In this document: positions 9,895-32,588 of the stretch, piece after piece
Numbering within the stretch: position 1 is the stretch's first letter
Layout of the letters: each line of letters begins with the position of its first letter
From: Acidimicrobiia bacterium
Lineage (GTDB): Bacteria; Actinomycetota; Acidimicrobiia; IMCC26256; JBBRZM01
DNA length: 64,000 bases
Direction of reading: 5' to 3'
NCBI GenBank assembly: GCA_038236695.1
Contig: JBBRZM010000001.1
Span: forward strand, 14,177-78,176
Position numbers and translations under genes: made by a program
The notes under the pieces: model-generated
Database searches by the model: none
The model's input: the letters and a program-made list of their open reading frames with translations, nothing else
Told to the model about the DNA's origin: nothing

Positions 9895-11058
9895 TCAGGC
9901 GAAACGGCGCATGTGGATGCTCGCGATGAGACCGATGCACGCGAAATACGCGATGACCGACGAGCCGCCGTAGCTCATAAACGGCAACGGGAGCCCGGTG
10001 ATGGGCATGATGCCCATCGTCATACCGACGTTCTCGAAGATCTGGAACGTGAACATCGCCAGGAACCCGACGCAGACGAGTGTGCCGAAGAAGTCTCCGG
10101 CCAGCCGGGCTGTTCGCCAGGTACGCCACACGATGATGGCGAAGAGCGCGAGCAGCGTCGCACCGCCGAGGAAGCCGAGCTCCTCACCGACCACCGTGAA
10201 GATGAAGTCGGTGCGTTGCTCGGGCACGAAGCCGAGCTGGGTCTGCGTGCCGTGAAATAGGCCGCGCCCGGTGAGCTGGCCGTTGGCGACCGCGGTCTTC
10301 GACTGGTCGACGTTGTACGTGGCGCGCTTCTTGTCCCCGCCTTGGTTCAAGAAGCTGGTGAGCCGGTCGACCTGGTACTGCTTCAGCACGCCGAGATTGA
10401 CCACCGCGAAGATGCCCGTGGCAGCCAGCGCGAGCAGCACGATCATTTGCCGCCCGCGCAGGCCCGCCACTGCGAGGATCGCGATCACGATCAGCGCCAT
10501 CACCATGGCGCTCCCGAGATCGGGCTGCAGCATCACGAGCCCGATCGGCACCACCGCGAGGCTCACGGCGACCGTCAAGCGCCACGCGTCGAGATCGCCC
10601 CGATGCTGATAGCAGTAGCCGGCGACGGCGATGACCAACGCGAACTTCGCGAACTCGGAGGGCTGGAGCTGGAAGCCGCCCGGCAGCTGGAACCAGCCCT
10701 GCGTACCCTTCGAGCGCGAACCGACGGGCGACAAGACGGCCAACAAGCCGAAGATCAGGCCGCCGTAGACGAGCACCGAAAGGTCGCGCAGCTTGCGATA
10801 ATCGACGGCCATCACAGCCGCCATCAGCAGCACGCCGACGAAGACGAACACCCCTTGACGTCTGACGTAGTGCAGCGGATCGCCGCGCACCGTGTTGCGG
10901 GTCGCGGAGTAGACCATGAGCAAGCCGAGCCCGGCAGTGCCGATCACCGCCGCGATGAGCAGCACGTCGAGGTGGCGCAGCGGCGACGCCTCGATTCGCG
11001 CTCTCCGGTCGGAGAGCATCGCTCGACGGGCGCTCGGCGCGCTGCTGATCGTTGCCAT
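9895..11058 (-). CDS. rodA: SEDS-family peptidoglycan polymerase RodA
   Basis: 387-aa polytopic FtsW/RodA/SpoVE-family protein, immediately downstream of PBP2 in the mre cluster. Confidence 0.85.
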   Translation of the reverse strand: MATISSAPSARRAMLSDRRARIEASPLRHLDVLLIAAVIGTAGLGLLMVYSATRNTVRGDPLHYVRRQGVFVFVGVLLMAAVMAVDYRKLRDLSVLVYGGLIFGLLAVLSPVGSRSKGTQGWFQLPGGFQLQPSEFAKFALVIAVAGYCYQHRGDLDAWRLTVAVSLAVVPIGLVMLQPDLGSAMVMALIVIAILAVAGLRGRQMIVLLALAATGIFAVVNLGVLKQYQVDRLTSFLNQGGDKKRATYNVDQSKTAVANGQLTGRGLFHGTQTQLGFVPEQRTDFIFTVVGEELGFLGGATLLALFAIIVWRTWRTARLAGDFFGTLVCVGFLAMFTFQIFENVGMTMGIMPITGLPLPFMSYGGSSVIAYFACIGLIASIHMRRFA

Positions 11059-13016
11059 CAGTCGATCGCCTTCGGCGCCGCGACGAGAGGATTGCTCGGC
11101 GCAAGTCCGGCGAGCTTCTCGAGGATCGTCCGCACGATCGGCGCGGCAACCGCAGACCCGAAGCCGGCCTCCTCGACAACCGCGGCCACGACGTACTGCG
11201 GGTTGTCGGTGGGCATGATGCCGACGAACAGCGACGTGGTCGACTTGTTGTTGACCTCCGCCGTACCGGTCTTGCCCGCGATCGACACCTTGTCGAATGG
11301 AAATCCCTTGAACGGCTGCGCCGCGGTTCCGGTGCGCGGCACACCTTCGAGGCCGGCGAGGATCGCGCTGCGCGCCGCGGGATCGAGGTGCGTGGACGCG
11401 AGCGTGTGCGGGGCGAGATCGCGCACGACGGTGGGGCTGTCGTAGTCACGGATCTGTGAGGCGAGCCTCGGCGTCAGCAGCTCGCCGCCGTTCGCGAACG
11501 CGGCGTAGCCACGCGCGAGTTGGAGCGGGGTGACGAGCAAGTCGCCCTGTCCCACCGCGAGGTTGACGCTGTCGCCCGGAAGCCAAATCGAGTTCTCGGC
11601 CTTCACGCGCGGATTGGGCTGGTTCTTGTTGAAGTCCTTCTTGAACGCCTCGTCGGGGATCCGCCCGGCCGCCTCACCGTCGAGACCGACGTCGGTCGGC
11701 TGACCGAAGCCGTAGGTGCGCGCGCTGTTCTGGATCGCGTAACCGGTCGTGGTGTCGCCGCGGTGGAAGCGGCCCCAGAAGTCGGCGCCGAGCGTGTAGA
11801 AGTACACGTCGCTCGACACGGTGAGTGCCTTTTGCAGGCTGATCGCTCCGTTGCGCGTGCCCCCCGCGTTGTGGAACGTGAAGCCGCCGACTTTGATCGA
11901 ACCGTTGTCGTTGATCACGCGGCCGGGGCTGGTCACGCCGGCGTCGAGCGCCGCGATCGCGCTGAACGTCTTCCACGTGGATCCGGGTGCGTACTGGCCC
12001 TGAACGGCACGGTCGATCAACGGGAAGTGGTTGGCGGGGTCGTTGAGCGCCTTGAACTGGTCGGTGGGGATCCCGTTGAGGAACTCGTTCGGGTCGTACG
12101 TGGGGTTGGACGCCATCGCGACCACCGACCCGTCCTGCGCGTTGAGCACCACGACCGAACCCGCCGGTGCTGCGAACCGGCCCGACCCTGACTTGGCCGA
12201 CGCGTCGCGCAGCCCCCGCGCTTGACGCATCGCATCGGCGAGCGTCTGCTCCGCGGTCTGTTGGATGTCGAGGTCGATCGTGAGCTGTACGTCGTGGCCG
12301 GGCCCGGCCGGACGCTCGTCGACGGTGCGCAACGGTTTGCCGCGGCTATCGACCTCGATCTTGTCGATCTGCGGCTTGCCGCGAAGCTCCGACTCGAACA
12401 TCTGCTCCGCGCCCGACTTCCCTACCGTCTCGCCGAGTTGGTAATGCGCGTCGCGTTGCTGCTTGAGCTCGGCGTCACTCACTTCGCCGGTGTAACCAAG
12501 CACGTGGGCACCAAGTGAGCCTCCCGGATACGAGCGGATCGGGATCTGATCGGCTTCGACGCCGGGGAAGTCTTGCTGGTGCTCTTTGATGACTGTGATG
12601 GCGTCGATCGACACGCCGGTCGCGACCGGCACCGGACGGTACGGCGAGATCCGCTTGTCGTTGAGCCGCTTCTCGATCGACGCCGGCGGCACCTGCAGCA
12701 TGAAGGCGAGCCGCGCGACGACCAGCTTGAGATTCTGGGGCGTGATCTTGCGGTCGACCAGGATGGCGTTCTCGACGCGGTTCTGCGCGAGCACGCGTCC
12801 CTTGTCATCGAGGAGACGACCGCGCAGCCCGGGTGTTTGCACGATGCGTACGGAGTTGCGGGTCGCGACCGCGGCCAGCTTCTGGCCGGCACCCGCTTGG
12901 AGGAACCACAGCCGGGCGAGCAAGGTGCAGAAGAGCGCCATGACCACGATGCCGATGACGCTGAGACGCACGCGTGGGTTGGCCTCGGACGCGTGCCGGC
13001 GGTCGGAAGAGCTCAT
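11058..13016 (-). CDS. mrdA: penicillin-binding protein 2 (elongation transpeptidase)
   Basis: N-terminal membrane anchor, PBP dimerisation domain, and transpeptidase motifs STWK, SSD and KTGTAE. Confidence 0.85.
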   Translation of the reverse strand: MSSSDRRHASEANPRVRLSVIGIVVMALFCTLLARLWFLQAGAGQKLAAVATRNSVRIVQTPGLRGRLLDDKGRVLAQNRVENAILVDRKITPQNLKLVVARLAFMLQVPPASIEKRLNDKRISPYRPVPVATGVSIDAITVIKEHQQDFPGVEADQIPIRSYPGGSLGAHVLGYTGEVSDAELKQQRDAHYQLGETVGKSGAEQMFESELRGKPQIDKIEVDSRGKPLRTVDERPAGPGHDVQLTIDLDIQQTAEQTLADAMRQARGLRDASAKSGSGRFAAPAGSVVVLNAQDGSVVAMASNPTYDPNEFLNGIPTDQFKALNDPANHFPLIDRAVQGQYAPGSTWKTFSAIAALDAGVTSPGRVINDNGSIKVGGFTFHNAGGTRNGAISLQKALTVSSDVYFYTLGADFWGRFHRGDTTTGYAIQNSARTYGFGQPTDVGLDGEAAGRIPDEAFKKDFNKNQPNPRVKAENSIWLPGDSVNLAVGQGDLLVTPLQLARGYAAFANGGELLTPRLASQIRDYDSPTVVRDLAPHTLASTHLDPAARSAILAGLEGVPRTGTAAQPFKGFPFDKVSIAGKTGTAEVNNKSTTSLFVGIMPTDNPQYVVAAVVEEAGFGSAVAAPIVRTILEKLAGLAPSNPLVAAPKAID

Positions 13017-23390: not shown

Positions 23391-23429
23391 GGGGAAAGGC
23401 AGTGTACTCGCCGGCCCTCGCGATCAGGG

Positions 23430-24331
23430 ATGTTCCGCGACGACGTCCCAGCGCGCCTGGTGACGGCGGTACCGTTTCGTGCGGTGCGTGATCTCTCGTT
23501 CACGACGGTGCTCGCGGTGGCGGCGATCGCGTTGGTTGCGCCGCTGCTCGTGCTGCTCGCACCGCAACTGCGTATGCCGGCAGTCGTGCTCGAGATCCTG
23601 CTCGGACCGTCGGGCTTCGACTGGATTCGCGTCGATGTGCCGGTGAGCGTGCTCGCGCTCCTCGGCCTCGGTTTCCTGTTGTTCCTCGCCGGGCTCGAGA
23701 TCGATCCCACGCGTCTCCGTCATGGCTTCGGGCGAATCCTGATCGCGTTCGTGATCTCGCTCGGCCTCGCCGCGGTCATCGGCAGGGGCATCGACGTCTA
23801 CGGCGAGACCGACGCACCACTGTTCATCGCGATCACGCTCGCGTCGACTTCGCTCGGGCTCGTGGTGCCGGTCATGCGCGACGCCGGTGAGACCGACACC
23901 GATTTCGGGCAACTCGTGATGACCGCGAGCACCGTCGCGGAGTTCGGATCCATCGTGCTCGTCTCGCTGTTCTGGCCGGCGCGTTGCTGCGGATCGTCGA
24001 CCGCGACCAGAAGCTCGTCCACGAGCACTTCCGGGCCAAGGTCGAGGCGATCGGCTATGGGTTCCTCATCCCTGTGTTCTTCGTCGCGAGCGGCCTCCGC
24101 TTCGACGCCGACGCGCTGTTCAAGGACGGGCACCACCTGCTGCTGGTCCCGATGTTCCTCGCCGCGATCTTTGTCGTGCGCGCGCTGCCGACGTTGATCT
24201 ACCGGCCGCTCATGGGCCCGCGCCACACGGCAGTCGCGGCACTGCTCCAGGCGACGACGCTGACGTTCCCGGTCGTCGCCGCACACTTGGGCGTGCAACT
24301 CAAGGTCTTCGACACCGCGACCGCCGCTTGA
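23430..24331 (+). pseudogene. cation:proton antiporter (CPA2-like), frameshifted and probably internally deleted
   Basis: The N-terminal part (...RMPAVVLEILLGPSGFDWI...TVAEFGSIVLVSLF) runs in the frame of ORF 22767..24197. The C-terminal part (LAGALLRIVDRDQKLVHEHFRAKVEAIGYGFLIPVFFVASGLRFD...) runs in the frame of ORF 23984..24331. The switch lies near 23965-23975. The combined length of about 300 aa is short for the family. Confidence 0.55.
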
Positions 24332-24419
24332 TCGCGGCCCTCGGCACCGAACTGATTTCTCCGCATACGCCGCGTCACCCAAGCCTCCGACCGATGTCGC
24401 CTACGCTCAGAAGCTCAGC

Positions 24420-24458
24420 CGGGAAGTAGCGCAGCGTGGTAGCGCACCTGCTTTGGGA
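24420..24458 (+). repeat. orphan 5' half of tRNA-Pro (direct repeat of 25455..25493)
   Basis: 38 of 39 nt are identical to positions 1-39 of the intact tRNA-Pro, from the acceptor 5' strand through the anticodon loop. No T-arm follows. Confidence 0.75.
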
Positions 24459-24625
24459 TTCCCGAACGCCAAGCGCTGCGGCCGTAAGGCGCTGACCTGC
24501 GAGTCAACCTGCCTGCGAGCAGCGTCGCGGCCCGAATTATCTGCGCACTACGCAGCGCGAATGCGTCACGGCCACGCCGACGGGGCACAACTCAATCGAC
24601 AGCCACTCAAGCACCGGAGGCCGCG

Positions 24626-24784
24626 ATGAATTCGCCACAGCTCGAGCTCGACGCTATCGACGACGCCCTGCGAGAGATCCAAAACATGCTCGGCCGGCTC
24701 CGCGACGCGAACCTCGCGGTAAGAAGGCGCGTCGCTCGGCTCGAAATCGCGACAGCGCTCGAGAACGGTCAGACGGCCGAATAG
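24626..24784 (+). CDS. small hypothetical coiled-coil protein (52 aa)
   Basis: Below the ORF-track cutoff. GGAGG lies 5 nt upstream of ATG 24626. Translation: MNSPQLELDAIDDALREIQNMLGRLRDANLAVRRRVARLEIATALENGQTAE. It uses GTA/AGA/AGG codons that look rare in the surrounding genes. Confidence 0.3.
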   Translation: MNSPQLELDAIDDALREIQNMLGRLRDANLAVRRRVARLEIATALENGQTAE

Positions 24785-25360
24785 CGCCGACCGCGCTCCC
24801 GCGGCCCCATTCTCGAACTGTGCGCGGTCGTCTCGACGACGGAGCGAAGGTGCGCGTGTTCGCCCGACAGACGATGAACCTCGGCCCGTAGCTCGGCGTT
24901 CTGGCCCACCACGTACGCCAGCACCATTTCCGCGTCACTGCGCCTGCACAGTGTTACCGACCCCTGGCCGCGCACGCTCATGTCGCTCACGGTGACCTGC
25001 GCGACGAAACGGAGCGAGCCGGCGCGCCGGACGACTCTCTCGGCCGGCGCGGGCTTGGCCGGCGGTGGCAGTAGGTGTATGCGCGGCCGCGAGCCTTGGG
25101 CCGGCCCGCCGACCGGCACGGTGATGATGTCGGCGTCGTGCAACCTTCGTGTTGGTGGCCCAGAGCCGAAGGTCGGCGGCAGAAACGGTCGCGCCTTGAG
25201 CGATGTTTACATTGGGGAAATGGAGCCCCATGACAACGGCCGATGAGCCGGCTGTGTCATTCCTGATCGCGAAGCTCGTCTCGACGAGAGCGACCCCGCC
25301 GACGCTATTCTCTCGGGCGTCGTCGGCCCCCGCGCCGATGATGATGGACTGGTTCGCCAC
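24769..25360 (-). pseudogene. frameshifted remnant of a surface/carbohydrate-binding-like protein
   Basis: Two minus-strand frames (ORFs 24935..25513 and 24769..25143) abut near 25140-25150. The upstream frame carries LHFPNVNIAQGATVSAADLRLWA, reminiscent of DNRLRE-type domains. There is no convincing start. Confidence 0.3.
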
Positions 25361-25454
25361 GTCAGCCCCACTGCATCCGCATGACGCCGAGCGCTTGAGT
25401 AAGAGGGATTTTCGCCCCGGGCTCGCGTAAGGTGCTGGTGGGCGGGCGATTTTC

Positions 25455-25528
25455 CGGGGAGTAGCGCAGCGTGGTAGCGCACCTGCTTTGGGAGCAGGAG
25501 GTCGGGGGTTCAAGTCCCCCCTCCCCGA
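25455..25528 (+). tRNA. tRNA-Pro (anticodon TGG)
   Basis: Cloverleaf read by hand: acceptor CGGGGAG/CTCCCCG, anticodon arm CCTGC-TTTGGGA-GCAGG, T-arm GGGGG-TTCAAGT-CCCCC, discriminator A. Confidence 0.9.
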
Positions 25529-25565
25529 CTGGTACGACGAACGCGCGCGTTACCGTCGCGGCCTC

Positions 25566-25639
25566 GCGGGTGTAGCTCAATGGCAGAGTCCCAGCCTTCC
25601 AAGCTGGTCATGCGGGTTCGATTCCCGTCACCCGCTCCA
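25566..25639 (+). tRNA. tRNA-Gly (anticodon TCC), CCA encoded
   Basis: Acceptor GCGGGTG/CACCCGC, anticodon arm CCAGC-CTTCCAA-GCTGG, T-loop TTCGATT, 3' TCCA. Confidence 0.9.
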
Positions 25640-25747
25640 TGTCATCAGCGCAGGTCAACCGCTACGCAGCGCCACTGGTCGGCAATTCTGCGCGCGTCTT
25701 ACCGTCCGTCGTGGCGCGTTGCGTGATTGACACCATTGGGGGCTCCC

Positions 25748-26461
25748 CTACTTACGTGGCTTGCGAAACTGCGCTTGCGCGTCGAGCAGCTTTTTGCGGT
25801 GCAGCGTGCGTGCCGTCTCCCTGTCGAACTTCTCGTTCCCCAATAGCTTCCCCGGCTCTGGTGGTGAATTGCCTCGCGCTTCGTCGCTCGTGCCGTCGAG
25901 CGCGTTCGCGGTCGCGACGAGCTTCGATAATTCGTCGAAGTACCCCTCGAGCAACACGATTCGCTCCACGAGGTTGTTGAGTCCCTGCTCCATTTTCTCG
26001 AGTGCCTCCCGGTGCGCTCCGTCGCTCGTGCCGTCGAGCGCGTTCGCGGTCGCGACGAGCTTCGATAATTCATCGAAGTACCCCTCGAGCAACACGATTC
26101 GCTCCACGAGGTTGTTGAGTCCCTGCTCCATTTTCTCGAGTGCCTCCCGGTGCGCTCCAAGGTGTCCGTCGACCGCCGCCAGGAGCGTGCCGACACTGGC
26201 AGACTCCCCCCACTGGGTGTTCGAGAGGCAGAGGTCCGATCGGCTCTCGTCGCGATTTTCGGTGTCGGCGCCCGCGACGAGCGACGCGAACGAATCCTCG
26301 TCGAAAGGATGCGCCACCATGACCTCAGCCGGCCCGCCTGCAGTCGCGCCCAACACGATTCGCACGGCGCCCGACTCGTCGACGATCTCGAGGTAGCGGG
26401 CGCGGATCGTATCGACGACCAGTGCGCGGTCAGTGGGCACACGGTCCGTAATCTTGACCAT
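25748..26461 (-). CDS. hypothetical protein with an internal 46-aa tandem duplication
   Basis: 237 aa. AGGAGGAG lies 6 nt upstream of ATG 26461. A coiled-coil-like unit, AHREALEKMEQGLNNLVERIVLLEGYFDELSKLVATANALDGTSD, occurs twice, followed by a basic C-terminal tail. Confidence 0.6.
   Translation of the reverse strand: MVKITDRVPTDRALVVDTIRARYLEIVDESGAVRIVLGATAGGPAEVMVAHPFDEDSFASLVAGADTENRDESRSDLCLSNTQWGESASVGTLLAAVDGHLGAHREALEKMEQGLNNLVERIVLLEGYFDELSKLVATANALDGTSDGAHREALEKMEQGLNNLVERIVLLEGYFDELSKLVATANALDGTSDEARGNSPPEPGKLLGNEKFDRETARTLHRKKLLDAQAQFRKPRK
25882..26157. repeat. 138-bp perfect-phase tandem duplication (2 copies, 1 mismatch)
   Basis: 25882..26019 and 26020..26157 are identical except for one position (ttcGtcgaag versus ttcAtcgaag). 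Confidence 0.9.
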
Positions 26462-26521
26462 GTCGGCTCCTCCTAGTAGGTGCTGGCCGTCCCCCGGGCC
26501 GTTTTGCGCGGTGCCGGGGGC

Positions 26522-26923
26522 TTATTCGTTCCCTGCCCTGGAGGTCAACGTACACGCCCGGATCGCGGGCGGGGCATCGGCGACCGGCGCGACATCCCGC
26601 TGCACCTGTGCTTCGAAGCGGCGCCCATCGACTCGGAGCAGTTTCAAGCCAGTCGGGGCCGCGACCTCGACAAGCACCGGCCCGGGCTCGTCGTCGGCGA
26701 CCCCTGGTACGCCTACCACGGCACCAGCGACTCGAGGAATCTCCACGAGGAAGTCGGGCTGCTCGCGTCGCTCAGCAACCCGATTAGCGCCGCGGGTGCG
26801 TCGCTCAGGCCAACGGACACTTCGAGCTCGTGCTCGAGGTCGGTCGCGCCAATGGTGGGGATGCATGGCCGCGTGGACGCCGGCGTCCACGAGCGTCGTT
26901 CCATGGCACATTCCATGCCGCAC
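26522..26923 (-). CDS. hypothetical protein (start uncertain)
   Basis: 133-aa ORF. Only the C-terminal ~75 aa (DFLVEIPRVAGAVVGVPGVADDEPGPVLVEV...) look protein-like, with weak resemblance to the N-terminus of the 25748..26461 product. A 7-bp GC hairpin follows the stop. Confidence 0.3.
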   Translation of the reverse strand: MRHGMCHGTTLVDAGVHAAMHPHHWRDRPRARARSVRWPERRTRGANRVAERREQPDFLVEIPRVAGAVVGVPGVADDEPGPVLVEVAAPTGLKLLRVDGRRFEAQVQRDVAPVADAPPAIRACTLTSRAGNE

Positions 26924-27029
26924 GCCGCCGCGTTCGCCGACGTTCGTGACTGTTTGCTGACGACGCGATCTGTTGAGACGTCAACCATTCCGTTCGCCCG
27001 CGTTCGCCGCTGATCGGTCTAACCGTGCC

Positions 27030-27069
27030 TCCAAGCTGGTCATGCGGGTTTGATTCCCGTCACCCGCTC
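27030..27069 (+). repeat. orphan 3' half of tRNA-Gly (direct repeat of 25598..25637)
   Basis: 39 of 40 nt are identical, starting exactly at the anticodon. The single difference hits the T-loop (TTCGATT to TTTGATT). Confidence 0.8.
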
Positions 27070-27158
27070 TGCAGCACGGCGCGGCTACGCAGCCGATCTG
27101 AGCAACCAGGCTCCGGCGAACGTCGCCAACCGCAGCTCCGCGGACTTCTGCTTCGGGA

Positions 27159-27356
27159 ATGCTGCGATCGGCTTGCCCGCGCTGTCGGCATACACGTTCC
27201 AGACCGCGGACACCGTCAGATAACGACACGCTGCTGGGCCGGGGTGCCGACCCGAACGGGCTCGCATACTGGGTCGGCGCGATCAGTCGCGGACATCGCG
27301 ACGAAGAAGTGATCGCACTGATCGTCGGTTCCAGCGAATACCTGTCGCGCCTCTGA
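27159..27356 (+). pseudogene. C-terminal fragment of a DUF4214-domain protein
   Basis: The ORF ends in TLLGRGADPNGLAYWVGAISRGHRDEEVIALIVGSSEYLSRL, matching the DUF4214 pattern (LGR..D..G..yW......G.....v......S.EY). No upstream domain or credible start is present. Confidence 0.4.
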
Positions 27357-27383
27357 GTCTCACGACCCCGAACGCGCCGACGA

Positions 27384-27692
27384 TCAGTCGTCCGCCGCCG
27401 CAAAGAGATGCAGCAGCTCAAACTCCGTGCGGTCCGGCGGCGCGGCGAGGAGCGGTGCGACCGCATCGTTGAAGGCGGCGAACTCCGGGTCGCTGTTGAC
27501 CCGATCGGCGGCCGGACGGTCAGTGAAGACGCCCAGGCCCCGCACGACGCCGCTCGCCTCGTCACCAACGACCAGGACGGTTTCCAGTGCTTCGTGCGTG
27601 CTCAGGAACTCGGCCGCGAACGCAGAGTAGATACCTGCGACATCGCGGTAGTGACCTGGCTTGGCGTGCAGCGTGAACTCGGCGACGTGCAT
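27384..27692 (-). CDS. small ABM-like (ferredoxin-fold) hypothetical protein
   Basis: ATG 27692 is preceded by AAGGAG. Translation: MHVAEFTLHAKPGHYRDVAGIYSAFAAEFL... The longer ORF (to 27929) runs through tRNA-His and is rejected. Confidence 0.5.
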   Translation of the reverse strand: MHVAEFTLHAKPGHYRDVAGIYSAFAAEFLSTHEALETVLVVGDEASGVVRGLGVFTDRPAADRVNSDPEFAAFNDAVAPLLAAPPDRTEFELLHLFAAADD

Positions 27693-27849
27693 CGACGTTT
27701 CTCCTTTTCTTGTCACGACATCCCGCACCGCTCCTGCTCCCAAACTTTCCCGATGCCCTCGATCGACCGGGCTACGCGGCAGAGACATGACGTCAGTCAA
27801 CGCTTGAACAGACCACTGGACGCGCGCACCGACGAGCGGTGCGCGTGCG

Positions 27850-27927
27850 TGGGGTGACCGAGGGGTTTCGAACCCCCGACCTCCGGGACCACAACCCGGC
27901 GCTCTAGCCAACTGAGCTACGGCCACC
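27850..27927 (-). tRNA. tRNA-His (anticodon GTG), with encoded G-1 and CCA
   Basis: Reverse complement reads G-GTGGCCG..CCGGG-TTGTGGT-CCCGG..TTCGAAA..CGGTCAC-C-CCA. Confidence 0.9.
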
Positions 27928-27963
27928 ACGATTGGGACGAGCGGATCGCATCCGCCGGCCCCG

Positions 27964-28037
27964 CGCGCCCGGGAGGATTCGAACCCCCGACCCGCAGATT
28001 AGAAATCTGCTGCTCTATCCATCTGAGCTACGGGCGC
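27964..28037 (-). tRNA. tRNA-Arg (anticodon TCT)
   Basis: Reverse complement reads GCGCCCG..GCAGA-TTTCTAA-TCTGC..GGGGG-TTCGAAT-CCTCC-CGGGCGC-G. Confidence 0.9.
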
Positions 28038-30031: not shown

Positions 30032-32032
30032 TCAGAGCGTGACCGCAGCGCCGCGCGCAATTCCCCAGTTCGACCAGTACGGCGCGTCGTTGACCATGAA
30101 CGCCGGCTGGTTGTTTCCGATCGAGAATGGGTGCAGCCCCCCGAACGCGTCGAGCGTGTAGCCGCCCGTGCCGTCGGGCAGGATCACTACCGCGCGCGCG
30201 ATGTCCCAACCCTGCCAGTACGGCGCGCCGTGGGTCGCAGGCGGGGCCGGACCGTTGCCGCCGTTTCCGATCTTGAACGCGTGGAGGCCGCCCCAGCCGT
30301 CGAGCACGTAGCCGCCCGTCCCGTTGGGAAGCACTGCGATGCCGCGTGCGATGTCCCAGCCTTGCCAGTACGGCGCGCCGGACGTCGCGGGTGGGTCGGA
30401 GCCGCCCGCGACGCGGAAGGTGTGCAGCCCGCCCCAGCCGTCGAGCGTGTACCCACCCTGCGAGCCCGGGTTCGCGTTCGGCACCACCGCAATGCTGCGC
30501 GCGATGTCCCAGCCTTGCCAGTACGCCGCGCCGCTCGTGTCGGGGGGAGTTGACCCGAAGCTGCCGATCCGAAACTTGTGCAGTCCACCCCAGCCGTCGA
30601 GCGTGTAGCCGCCGGCCTGGCGTGAGATCACGCTGACACCACGGGCGATATCCCAGCCGGGCCACGTCGTGAGGTCGCGAGGATCGGCCGGCGCGAGGTT
30701 GCAGCCGACCGCGAACGAGTGCAGCACGCCCCAGCCGTCGAGCGTGTACCCGCCGGGGCTGTCGGGGAGGTCCGCGCCTCCGGGTTGATACGGGCCCATC
30801 GTCTGACCCAGCGCCGCTTGCACCGCCCGTTGCGGATTGAGGAGCGGTGCGTTGCTCAACGATGCGCCGATCGGCTGGGCAGCGTCGTCAAGCGTCGTGT
30901 ACACCGCGTTCGGTGCTGCGCCTGCTGCCCGCGTGAGTGCTGCGGCGGCCGCGACCAGCGGGGACGACAGCGACGTGCCCGACTCCGCGAGATAGCCTCC
31001 GCTTGCGTGCGCGCCGCAAATCTGCACGCCCGGCGCCGACAAGCCCTTGCCGCTCAGCCAGTTGCCGTAGTTCGAGAACCACGACCGGCTGTCGTCGGGG
31101 TTCGTCGACGTGGCTGCGATCACGCCGATGTCGTTCGCGGGATACACCGGGTCGGTCGCGAATCCCGTGTCACCGTTGTTGCCGGCCGCCGCGACCACAG
31201 TGATGCCGGCATTGATCGCCGCGGCCACGGCGCCGCTGATCATCGACGACGGCTCGTCGGGGCCACCGGAGAGCGACAGGTTGATCACCCGGGCGCCATG
31301 CGAGACCGCGTAGTAGATCGCGGCGCTGATCGAGAAGTTGCTGCCGAGTCCGTCGGCGTCCATCGCGCGCACGGAAAGAATGGGCGCGCCGGTCGCGGCG
31401 CCGGCGATGCCGAGCGCATTACCGGTGGTCGAGCCGATGACGCTCGACACGAGCGTGCCGTGACCGTTCGGGTCCGTCAGGCCATATGCGCCACCCGACA
31501 GGCATGAACCCGACAGACAGTCGGCGCCGACGCCGATCACGCGACCCACGAGATCCTCATGGGCCGCGTTCACGCCCGTGTCGACGACCGCAACGATTTG
31601 TTGTGCGAGCGCCGACGGATTGACGAGCGCGCTCGCAGCGCCGAACGACACGCGATCGAGCGCCCACTGCTGGGGCCGATACGGGTCGGGACCCGCCAAC
31701 ACGTGCATCCGGACCTTCGGCTCGGCCGCGGTGACGCCCGGCGTGCGTCGCAGCTGCGCGACCAGGGCGTCGGCGTCACCCACCGACGGAGCGCGGAACT
31801 GCTCGACTTTGACCTCGGTACCCACGCGTACCGTCGCCCCGACGTCGACCGAGCCGTCGGCGTTCGCGGTGCTTCGTGTCGTCGGAGGCACCACCGGGTG
31901 CGGGCGCGGCGCGGGAGTCGCGACGGACAGTGAAGATGTCCGGGCTGCCACCGGCCCTGCGAACCCGACACAAGCGACAAGCACCGCGGTGAGCGTGAGC
32001 AGGTGTGGTCGCCGCACACGCACCTGACGCAT
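30032..32032 (-). CDS. secreted S8 (subtilisin-like) serine peptidase with C-terminal 5x repeat domain
   Basis: Signal peptide. Catalytic triad contexts VVDTGV (Asp), HGTLVSS (His) and SGTSLSSP (Ser). The C-terminal 240 aa consist of GGYTLDGWGGLH.F...YWQGWDIAR repeats. Confidence 0.85.
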   Translation of the reverse strand: MRQVRVRRPHLLTLTAVLVACVGFAGPVAARTSSLSVATPAPRPHPVVPPTTRSTANADGSVDVGATVRVGTEVKVEQFRAPSVGDADALVAQLRRTPGVTAAEPKVRMHVLAGPDPYRPQQWALDRVSFGAASALVNPSALAQQIVAVVDTGVNAAHEDLVGRVIGVGADCLSGSCLSGGAYGLTDPNGHGTLVSSVIGSTTGNALGIAGAATGAPILSVRAMDADGLGSNFSISAAIYYAVSHGARVINLSLSGGPDEPSSMISGAVAAAINAGITVVAAAGNNGDTGFATDPVYPANDIGVIAATSTNPDDSRSWFSNYGNWLSGKGLSAPGVQICGAHASGGYLAESGTSLSSPLVAAAAALTRAAGAAPNAVYTTLDDAAQPIGASLSNAPLLNPQRAVQAALGQTMGPYQPGGADLPDSPGGYTLDGWGVLHSFAVGCNLAPADPRDLTTWPGWDIARGVSVISRQAGGYTLDGWGGLHKFRIGSFGSTPPDTSGAAYWQGWDIARSIAVVPNANPGSQGGYTLDGWGGLHTFRVAGGSDPPATSGAPYWQGWDIARGIAVLPNGTGGYVLDGWGGLHAFKIGNGGNGPAPPATHGAPYWQGWDIARAVVILPDGTGGYTLDAFGGLHPFSIGNNQPAFMVNDAPYWSNWGIARGAAVTL
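30035..30754 (-). repeat. five tandem ~45-52-aa coding repeats (GGY.LDGWGGLH.F / YW.GWDIAR)
   Basis: The repeats start at residues 427, 474, 527, 573 and 623 of the S8 peptidase. Confidence 0.75.
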
Positions 32033-32126: not shown

Positions 32127-32588
32127 TCAGCCCGTCTGGTGCTCGTGGAGATCCACGAGTACCTCGGCGGGATGCACCGGGATATCGGCGACCTCGTAGA
32201 CCTTCGCGATCCGGCCCTCAGGATCGATGAGAAAGCTCAGCCGCTTGGCGAAATGCACTTTGTCGGTGCCGGGCGCGCGCGTGCCGTACGCCACGCCGAC
32301 CTGCTCGTCCGTGTCACAGAGGAGCTTGAACGGGAAATCGAACTTCTCGCGGAACGCGCGGTTCTCCTCGGGCGTGTCGAATGAGATTCCGAGAATCTCA
32401 CAGTTCATCGCCTCGTAGTCGGCGGCCTGATCACGCAGGCCCTTCCCCTCGATCGTTCAGCCAGGGGTGTCGGCCTTCGGGTACCACCAGAGCAGCACCC
32501 AGCGGCCGCGGTAGTCGTGCAGCGAGGTCGGCACGCCGTCGTGAGCGAGGAGCGTGAAGTCGGGAGCTTGATCACCGGGTTGCAGCAT
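32127..32588 (-). CDS. bcp: Bcp/PrxQ-type peroxiredoxin with in-frame TGA at the peroxidatic Cys position (candidate selenoprotein; alternatively a nonsense pseudogene)
   Basis: ATG 32588 through TGA at 32459..32457 to the stop at 32127 gives 153 codons in one frame: ...WWYPKADTPG[TGA]TIEGKGLRDQ... This aligns with E. coli Bcp FYPKAMTPGCTVQACGLRD. There are no other lesions. Confidence 0.6.
32424..32441 (-). promoter_or_regulatory. candidate bacterial SECIS hairpin
   Basis: On the mRNA strand: GGCCUG-CGUGAU-CAGGCC (6-bp GC-rich stem, 6-nt loop with G at loop position 2). The stem starts 15 nt after the UGA and the loop starts 21 nt after it. Confidence 0.4.

Follow-up and report, generated by a model that had tools for sequence, protein, structure and literature searches.

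Probable remnant of an integrative element at tRNA-Gly(TCC), with a mirror-image scar at the neighbouring tRNA-Pro(TGG), in a soil Acidimicrobiia genome

Main finding

In a stretch of 64,000 nucleotides from an Acidimicrobiia genome (contig JBBRZM010000001.1; the whole stretch is hereafter the window), an intact tRNA-Gly(TCC) gene is followed 1.4 kb downstream by a copy of its own 3' half, and the 1.39 kb lying between the two is, with a probability of about 0.85, what is left, degraded and immobile, of an integrative element whose likeliest identity is a prophage or a small integrase cassette. This scar of integration is genuine and of a known type, ordinary and non-autonomous, and is too small to move by itself. 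A second, independent remnant of opposite geometry lies upstream of the tRNA-Pro/tRNA-Gly pair; below, the interval downstream of tRNA-Gly is called Y and that upstream of tRNA-Pro is called X.

As the geometry suggests, the element would have entered through site-specific recombination, with a tyrosine integrase acting at the tRNA-Gly(TCC) anticodon loop. The attachment site carried by the element (attP) would have contained the tRNA sequence from the anticodon to the 3' end together with ~35 nt of flank, and integration would therefore have rebuilt a working gene (the left attachment site, attL; 25566-25639) while displacing the 3' half of the host gene downstream (the right attachment site, attR; 27030-27069). 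Later deletions, as comparison with a sister strain shows, took the integrase and nearly all else, leaving one small intact open reading frame (ORF), ORF-A, and ~570 bp of neutrally drifting DNA. As no recombinase is left, the remnant is unable to excise on its own.

Sequence data and methods

The window belongs to a high-G+C genome that was obtained from soil metagenomes, and relatives were retrieved via the trigger-factor (Tig) gene. The sister strain L043 (European Nucleotide Archive ERZ1700618) is ~97% identical to the window and has the same gene order; the closest relative after it, L034, has a Tig identity of 92% and ~92% DNA identity across the flanking genes, and Tig identity falls to ~74% in L037 and L039 and to 67% in L030. 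Transfer RNA genes were called with ARAGORN and Rfam, and the significance of repeats was judged against 100 shuffles. The layout is not an assembly artefact, because two Logan contigs from SRR19962014 match 24429-25489 and 26129-27878, respectively, at 99.9% identity, and the second runs across the half copy without a break. Coordinates of the features are collected in Table 1.

Attachment geometry at tRNA-Gly

The repeat search recovered the 40-nt direct repeat described in the earlier note (25598-25637 and 27030-27069), including its single mismatch, a change of GTTCGA to GTTTGA in the T-loop; no third copy is present in the window, and 0 of 100 shuffles yielded two matches. The repeat starts at the first anticodon base and ends 2 nt short of the encoded CCA; the fragment comprises tRNA positions 33-72, at a start-to-start spacing of 1432 bp. 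Beyond the tRNA 3' end the two flanks stay similar for ~35 nt, up to GCTACGCAGC, with an 8-nt indel, and GCTACGCAGC is found at just two sites in the window, 25661 and 27084. In L043 the identity begins at base 1 of the 7-nt anticodon loop, which is expected for anticodon-loop attachment sites (Islander paper). The T-loop mismatch had been taken as the reason why the copy is non-functional; half a tRNA is non-functional in any case, and the L043 half copy does not have the mismatch.

The Islander paper distinguishes three crossover sublocations (anticodon loop, T loop and 3' junction) and applies a length filter of 2-200 kb. By this standard, the window holds a full tRNA gene and its cognate fragment on one replicon, both on the plus strand, the fragment being a terminal 3' piece on the correct (downstream) side with the crossover at the anticodon loop; an integrase between gene and fragment is absent, and the interval falls outside the length range.

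Erasure of the integrase gene

Integrase similarity is absent from the 64-kb window, both in tblastn searches with the L039, L037 and L048 integrases and in Pfam searches, in keeping with the earlier note's observation that no recombinase is enclosed. Between the ORF-A stop and tRNA-Gly, however, the window is 217 nt shorter than L043 (32, 74 and 111 nt missing), and there L043 holds a two-piece integrase relic on the ORF-A strand. Its first piece matches residues 33-87 of the L039 integrase (tblastn E 6e-9) and its second a segment ~100 residues further along the same protein (tblastn E 5e-8); against the L026 integrase, residues 49-87 and 150-191 are matched (BLASTP E 1e-11). The L026 and L039 proteins carry the Phage_integrase domain, and that of L026 also Phage_int_SAM_3, while the L043 relic by itself is too short and has no Pfam match. 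The window and L043 thus show successive erosion stages of one integrase gene. Of the two origins that had been offered, a heavily decayed island fits better, given the L043 relic at the point of the 217-nt loss in the window, than a very small non-autonomous cargo module with both attachment sites kept.

The same tRNA-Gly as a target in relatives

Related genomes carry integrases at the same gene. In L037 and L039, a half copy identical to their own tRNA-Gly over 40/40 positions lies 3.0 and 2.3 kb downstream, respectively, and a Phage_integrase gene (frameshifted in these assemblies) sits beside the intact tRNA-Gly, inside the element; in L026, a gene with Phage_integrase and SAM_3 domains lies 0.9 kb from a tRNA-Gly identical to that of the window, the far end of the element being outside the locus examined. 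Together with the L043 relic, these integrases uphold the proposal that the repeat is the attL/attR scar of a tyrosine-integrase element targeting the anticodon loop, and in this uncultured soil Acidimicrobiia lineage insertion seems to have struck tRNA-Gly(TCC) and tRNA-Pro(TGG) repeatedly. On the far side, the half copy marks the boundary with native DNA, because an orthologue of the 102-aa gene that follows it stands next to tRNA-Gly in the distant relative L033, between tRNA-Gly and tRNA-Arg (tblastn E 1.6e-29). The earlier note had allowed that an ancient duplication fixed in a conserved core context, or a tandem series of decaying tRNA genes, might instead explain the repeat; L034 (Tig 92%) has no tRNA-Gly half copy within 7.2 kb downstream, and a tandem decay series was looked for at the locus and not found.

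Several observations nevertheless weigh against an integrative origin. The integrase remnant is undetectable in the window itself, and a close relative with a clean empty site is lacking: L034 is rearranged downstream of tRNA-Gly, where it has a methyltransferase-like ORF, a DinB-like polymerase and an acyl-CoA ligase-like ORF (named by reading translations). Its tRNA-Gly flank shares the 11-mer GCGCAGGTCAA with the attL flank of the window and not with the attR flank, and L034 may itself have carried a related element, in which case it would not represent an empty site. Neither of two metagenome scans for further strains or an empty site, run with a flank pattern and a spacer pattern respectively, returned a match, nor did an exact ClpP look-up. 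ORF-A and the genes of X are near-orphans, for which a phage origin is suggested, weakly, by a few weak homologues, and no recombinase was found in X (Pfam on the X ORFs of L043; tblastn). Lastly, the ~35 nt of flank homology is longer than function needs and, alone, would also fit a local duplication.

The last point leads to a rival in which no integrase took part: the tRNA-Gly 3' half and its flank (~80 bp) would have been copied by illegitimate or homologous recombination, with unrelated DNA accumulating afterwards between the copies. Beyond the extended homology itself, it is favoured by the presence of CACGGCGC in both flanks and also beside tRNA-Gly in L004, L006 and L009, and by the abundance of deletions and pseudogenes nearby. 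The repeat boundary, however, falls in the anticodon loop in the Gly and the Pro repeat alike, L037 and L039 show the same geometry with live-looking integrases, and the integrase relic inside the L043 interval already disfavours the duplication, which is accordingly considered very unlikely.

Drift of the half sites

When the window is set against L043, the Gly half copy has 1 of its 40 nt changed, together with the base immediately 5' to it, and the Pro half copy 3 of 40 nt, which puts the divergence at or above the genome-wide 2-3%; the half sites drift at a roughly neutral rate or faster, and are not conserved. Within L043, both Gly copies are 100% identical over ~52 nt, including 9-13 nt of flank. 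The encoded CCA present in the window, L034 and L026 is missing from the intact L043 tRNA-Gly (11041-11112), whose 3' flank is the attR flank. Because the identity takes in the flank, and because CCA is lost from the intact gene while L034 and L026 keep it, this looks like gene conversion (RecA-type) from attR into attL rather than selection on the attachment site.

These comparisons bear on the idea that Y resembles a cis-mobilizable element (CIME): a hitch-hiker that has lost its own recombinase and kept usable attL and attR, and that could be moved in trans, or by accretion, through a related element at tRNA-Gly. Such elements are a recognised class (ICEberg 2.0 paper), integrase-bearing members of the same family occupy this tRNA-Gly in relatives, and ORF-A stays intact, with a strong Shine-Dalgarno sequence, amid decaying surroundings. 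Although the two cores match at 39/40 positions in the window and fully over ~52 nt in L043, the half sites have diverged between the strains about as fast as neutral sequence, or faster, and the perfect identity in L043, which reaches into the flank and removes CCA, has the look of gene conversion just described. Large strain-specific deletions moreover abut attL, where arm-type sites would lie; ORF-A was found in the lineage of the window alone, with no second genomic context among 5.8 billion proteins, IMG/VR and GenBank phages; and the 64-kb window has no integrase. A CIME-like state is therefore quite unlikely, and a decayed, immobile remnant is preferred.

ORF-A and the decayed DNA of Y

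The G+C content is 0.61-0.62 at 25600-26200, against 0.65-0.68 in the surroundings. Of the two minus-strand ORFs originally proposed for the interval, ORF-A is credible: a GGAGGAG Shine-Dalgarno sequence stands 6 nt 5' of its ATG, and between the window and L043 it shows 0 indels and 7 synonymous plus 9 non-synonymous changes (ratio of non-synonymous to synonymous rates, dN/dS, ~0.41). The second is not supported, because 26462-27029 drifts neutrally with frame-breaking indels, shows no frame bias and matches no family; of its 568 bp, 21 (3.7%) are substituted relative to L043, the comparison also showing three indel events of 2, 1 and 1 nt and no third-position bias in any candidate frame, there is no Pfam or PHROG match, and no gene is called in the L043 counterpart. 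The strong Shine-Dalgarno sequence and the internal duplication reported for ORF-A are both present, but the duplication is not fresh: it is older than the split of the strains, because L043 has it too, with identical boundaries and 4 nt of difference between the copies, against 1-2 nt in the window.

Among 5.8 billion proteins, the L043 copy is the one close homologue of ORF-A, and none was found in IMG/VR or GenBank phages. The few weak homologues match the N-terminal domain (~100 aa); two of them adjoin tape-measure genes (Pfam PhageMin_Tail) on prophage-like contigs, one ~3 kb from an integrase, and a third (P0005) adjoins a long, unannotated and truncated gene in the same arrangement, which together weakly suggest that ORF-A may be of phage origin. 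With regard to function, Pfam, PHROGs, PADLOC and NCBIfam returned coiled-coil noise only, and an AlphaFold model with a predicted local distance difference test (pLDDT) score of 61 had no match at E <= 0.001 in a Foldseek search against BFVD.

The mirror-image scar at tRNA-Pro

The earlier note overlooked a mirror-image scar 1 kb upstream, formed by the 5' half of tRNA-Pro. The Pro repeat comprises one base upstream plus the 5' half of the gene (25454-25493), its copy lying 1 kb upstream of the intact gene. The 23 nt 5' of the fragment (24396-24418) are homologous to the upstream flank of the L034 tRNA-Pro, and the sequence upstream of the intact tRNA-Pro of the window is not; because the native flank adjoins the fragment and L034 does not have X, 24459-25493 (1035 bp) is an insertion relative to L034. 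The fragment thus lies upstream, in direct orientation, with the native flank kept and the insert absent from L034, as in the 5'-fragment islands of the Islander paper, in which 159 of 3919 islands have a 5' tRNA-gene fragment and 3760 a 3' fragment. The geometry of X is known but uncommon, and the pairing of a 3'-type with a 5'-type scar around one tRNA pair is the sole mildly unusual aspect of the locus. From the comparison with L034 we infer that the sequence upstream of the intact tRNA-Pro, and with it that of the tRNA pair's promoter, is now derived from the element.

X and the half tRNA are also present in three further Logan contigs, and in every contig with readable DNA the half tRNA stands beside the 52-aa ORF. 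Near 25125, the minus-strand ORF of X has a length-variable stretch, longer by 312 bp in L043 and by ~90 bp in L052 and without extra length in the window, L050 and L051; the L043 version encodes a DVVRDVVRDVV repeat. In L030, a tRNA-Pro 5' half breaks at the identical base and is followed by unrelated DNA to the contig end, for which homology to the left end of X is not significant (p ~0.1). The candidate motif CTACGCAGCGC, considered as a link between X and Y, was rejected, as several 11-mers match between the two by chance.

X and Y are treated as separate events, because they share no sequence beyond chance and because L037 and L039 have Gly-type insertions without a Pro scar. The same facts speak against a single composite event, in which X, tRNA-Pro, tRNA-Gly and Y would have arrived as one element whose own tRNA pair replaced the middle of the host pair and left the host Pro 5' half and Gly 3' half outside. 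Such an event would suit the mirror-image placement of the 40-nt half copies on either side of the tRNA pair, and phages carrying tRNAs that compensate for disrupted host tRNAs exist; yet, reasoning from the layout, no single site-specific crossover reproduces the observed order, the Pro and Gly genes and their spacer share 95% identity with L034, like the flanking genes, and look native, and X and Y have only chance 11-mers in common. The Pro-type fragment in L030 points the same way, although its contig ends 1.5 kb beyond and a Gly scar could lie there. A composite origin is thus exceedingly improbable, and two independent remnants are preferred. More speculatively, X may belong to an undescribed family of small elements of soil Acidimicrobiia that enter the anticodon loop of tRNA-Pro from the 5' side and exchange the tRNA pair's promoter in the process, and X and Y could be retained CIME-like modules movable by integrases of the L026/L039 type. 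In favour are the occurrence of X, its 52-aa gene intact, in at least five assemblies and the recurrence of the breakpoint in the distant L030; this combined proposal is regarded as unlikely.

Table 1. Features of the tRNA-Pro/tRNA-Gly locus in the window
Feature	Position	Strand	Basis
tRNA-Gly(TCC), intact; interpreted as attL (host 5' half, element-supplied 3' half)	25566-25639	+	ARAGORN; Rfam tRNA, 67 bits
Repeat copy 1, putative att core within the intact gene, anticodon to 3' end	25598-25637	+	Repeat search
Repeat copy 2, displaced tRNA-Gly 3' half (interpreted as attR)	27030-27069	+	39/40 identical to copy 1; no tRNA call there
attR flank, homologous to attL flank 25640-25672	27070-27093	+	Alignment; shared GCGC...GCTACGCAGC, 8-nt indel
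Probable site of the erased integrase gene	25640-25747	-	L043 counterpart 10703-11005 holds the two-piece integrase relic
ORF-A, 237 aa, sole credible cargo gene; N-terminal beta-rich domain, then coiled coil	25748-26461	-	ORF call; GGAGGAG Shine-Dalgarno
Tandem duplication inside ORF-A, 138 bp (46 codons)	25876-26013 / 26014-26151	-	Copies 99% identical
Decayed non-coding right part of Y (second ORF of the earlier note)	26462-27029	.	Comparison with L043
tRNA-Pro(TGG), intact, 36 nt upstream of tRNA-Gly; 5' half and upstream flank probably element-derived	25455-25529	+	ARAGORN, Rfam; L034 comparison
Displaced tRNA-Pro 5' half, ends at last anticodon-loop base	24419-24458	+	39/40 identical to 25454-25493
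X, probable second remnant, 995 bp, 5'-fragment geometry	24459-25453	.	Absent from L034
X ORF, 52 aa	24626-24784	+	Identical in five assemblies
X ORF, frameshifted; DNRLRE-like domain match below threshold	~24769-25440	-	Open in other strains, shortened in window
Native host gene, 102 aa, no family match, chromosomal side of attR	27384-27692	-	Orthologue in L033

Neighbouring features

Other signs of deletion and rearrangement surround the tRNA genes. Upstream (23400-24331, plus strand) lies a Na+/H+ exchanger pseudogene in which Pfam positions ~157-248 are missing through a 243-bp deletion relative to L034 and a frame change; L043 has a larger deletion and the Logan contig L050 keeps an intact 3' end, and decay of this gene is proceeding separately in the sister strains. 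Between the half tRNA and the 102-aa gene, a C-terminal DUF4214 fragment (27159-27356, plus strand; Pfam E 2.3e-6, profile positions 30-69 of 72), whose upstream part is missing, could be the residue of an older insertion. L043 is without 446 bp here (window 27278-27723), including the native 102-aa gene that is conserved in L033, and the neighbourhood of attR is no less prone to deletion than the remnant. At 8 nt from the right edge of this deletion lies an inverted copy, perfect over 14 nt, of the tRNA-Pro anticodon loop and 3' stem (TTTGGGAGCAGGAG; 27731-27744, minus strand; E 0.013), which may be due to chance or may represent a secondary att-like site. Further on, the tRNA-His/tRNA-Arg pair (27850-28037, minus strand) is inverted relative to tRNA-Pro, tRNA-Gly and tRNA-Lys, with a similar arrangement in L004 and L009; all five tRNAs are on one strand in L013, L023, L029 and L033, as are the four within the locus of L037 (Pro, Gly, Arg, His), which points to an old local inversion.

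Farther from the scars, a 666-aa S8 peptidase has a C-terminal part (30100-30770, minus strand) with ~150-nt internal repeats and a recurring GGYTLDGWGGLH motif, the repeats cross-matching at ~69% identity between the window and L043. An ORF of the AhpC/TSA family (32127-32456, minus strand) spans profile positions 44-123 only, its L043 counterpart being called as genes of 43 and 93 aa, and is possibly a frameshifted or truncated peroxiredoxin gene. No island was found at the transfer-messenger RNA (tmRNA) gene, whose neighbours are ordinary genes.

Significance and comparison with known systems

Scars of this kind are common and well understood in bacterial genomes, and the current understanding of integration is unchanged by the finding. 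The locus offers instead a worked example of a tRNA-borne island decaying to near nothing, with the integrase erased in one strain and a relic kept in its sister, and it flags ORF-A as one small gene family that has survived the decay. Island finders that depend on an integrase would miss such scars.

The closest parallels are the anticodon-loop islands and prophages catalogued by Islander, with which Y shares an intact tRNA gene and a cognate terminal fragment in direct orientation, on the expected side and with an anticodon-loop boundary, as well as Phage_integrase-family integrases at the same tRNA-Gly in relatives; it differs in that its interval of 1.43 kb lies below the Islander minimum of 2 kb and its integrase is gone, such that software of this type would not call it. 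X is likewise comparable to the Islander 5'-fragment islands, its tRNA-Pro 5' half being displaced upstream in direct orientation with the native flank adjoining, but it measures only 1.0 kb and carries orphan cargo, with no recombinase or relic found. CIMEs, known from families of Streptococcus ICEs (integrative and conjugative elements), also have attL and attR flanks and, like the remnant, lack genes for integration and transfer; unlike them, the remnant has neutrally drifting half sites and deletions that reach attL. Finally, among actinobacterial elements that target tRNA 3' halves, pSAM2 reportedly uses tRNA-Pro and mycobacteriophage L5 tRNA-Gly. Although the remnant keeps no replication, transfer or phage structural genes, and the likeness is one of architecture, it shares with elements of this type the host phylum, the SAM-like N-domain and catalytic domain of the integrases in its relatives, and an attachment block that extends from the anticodon loop to the tRNA's 3' end.

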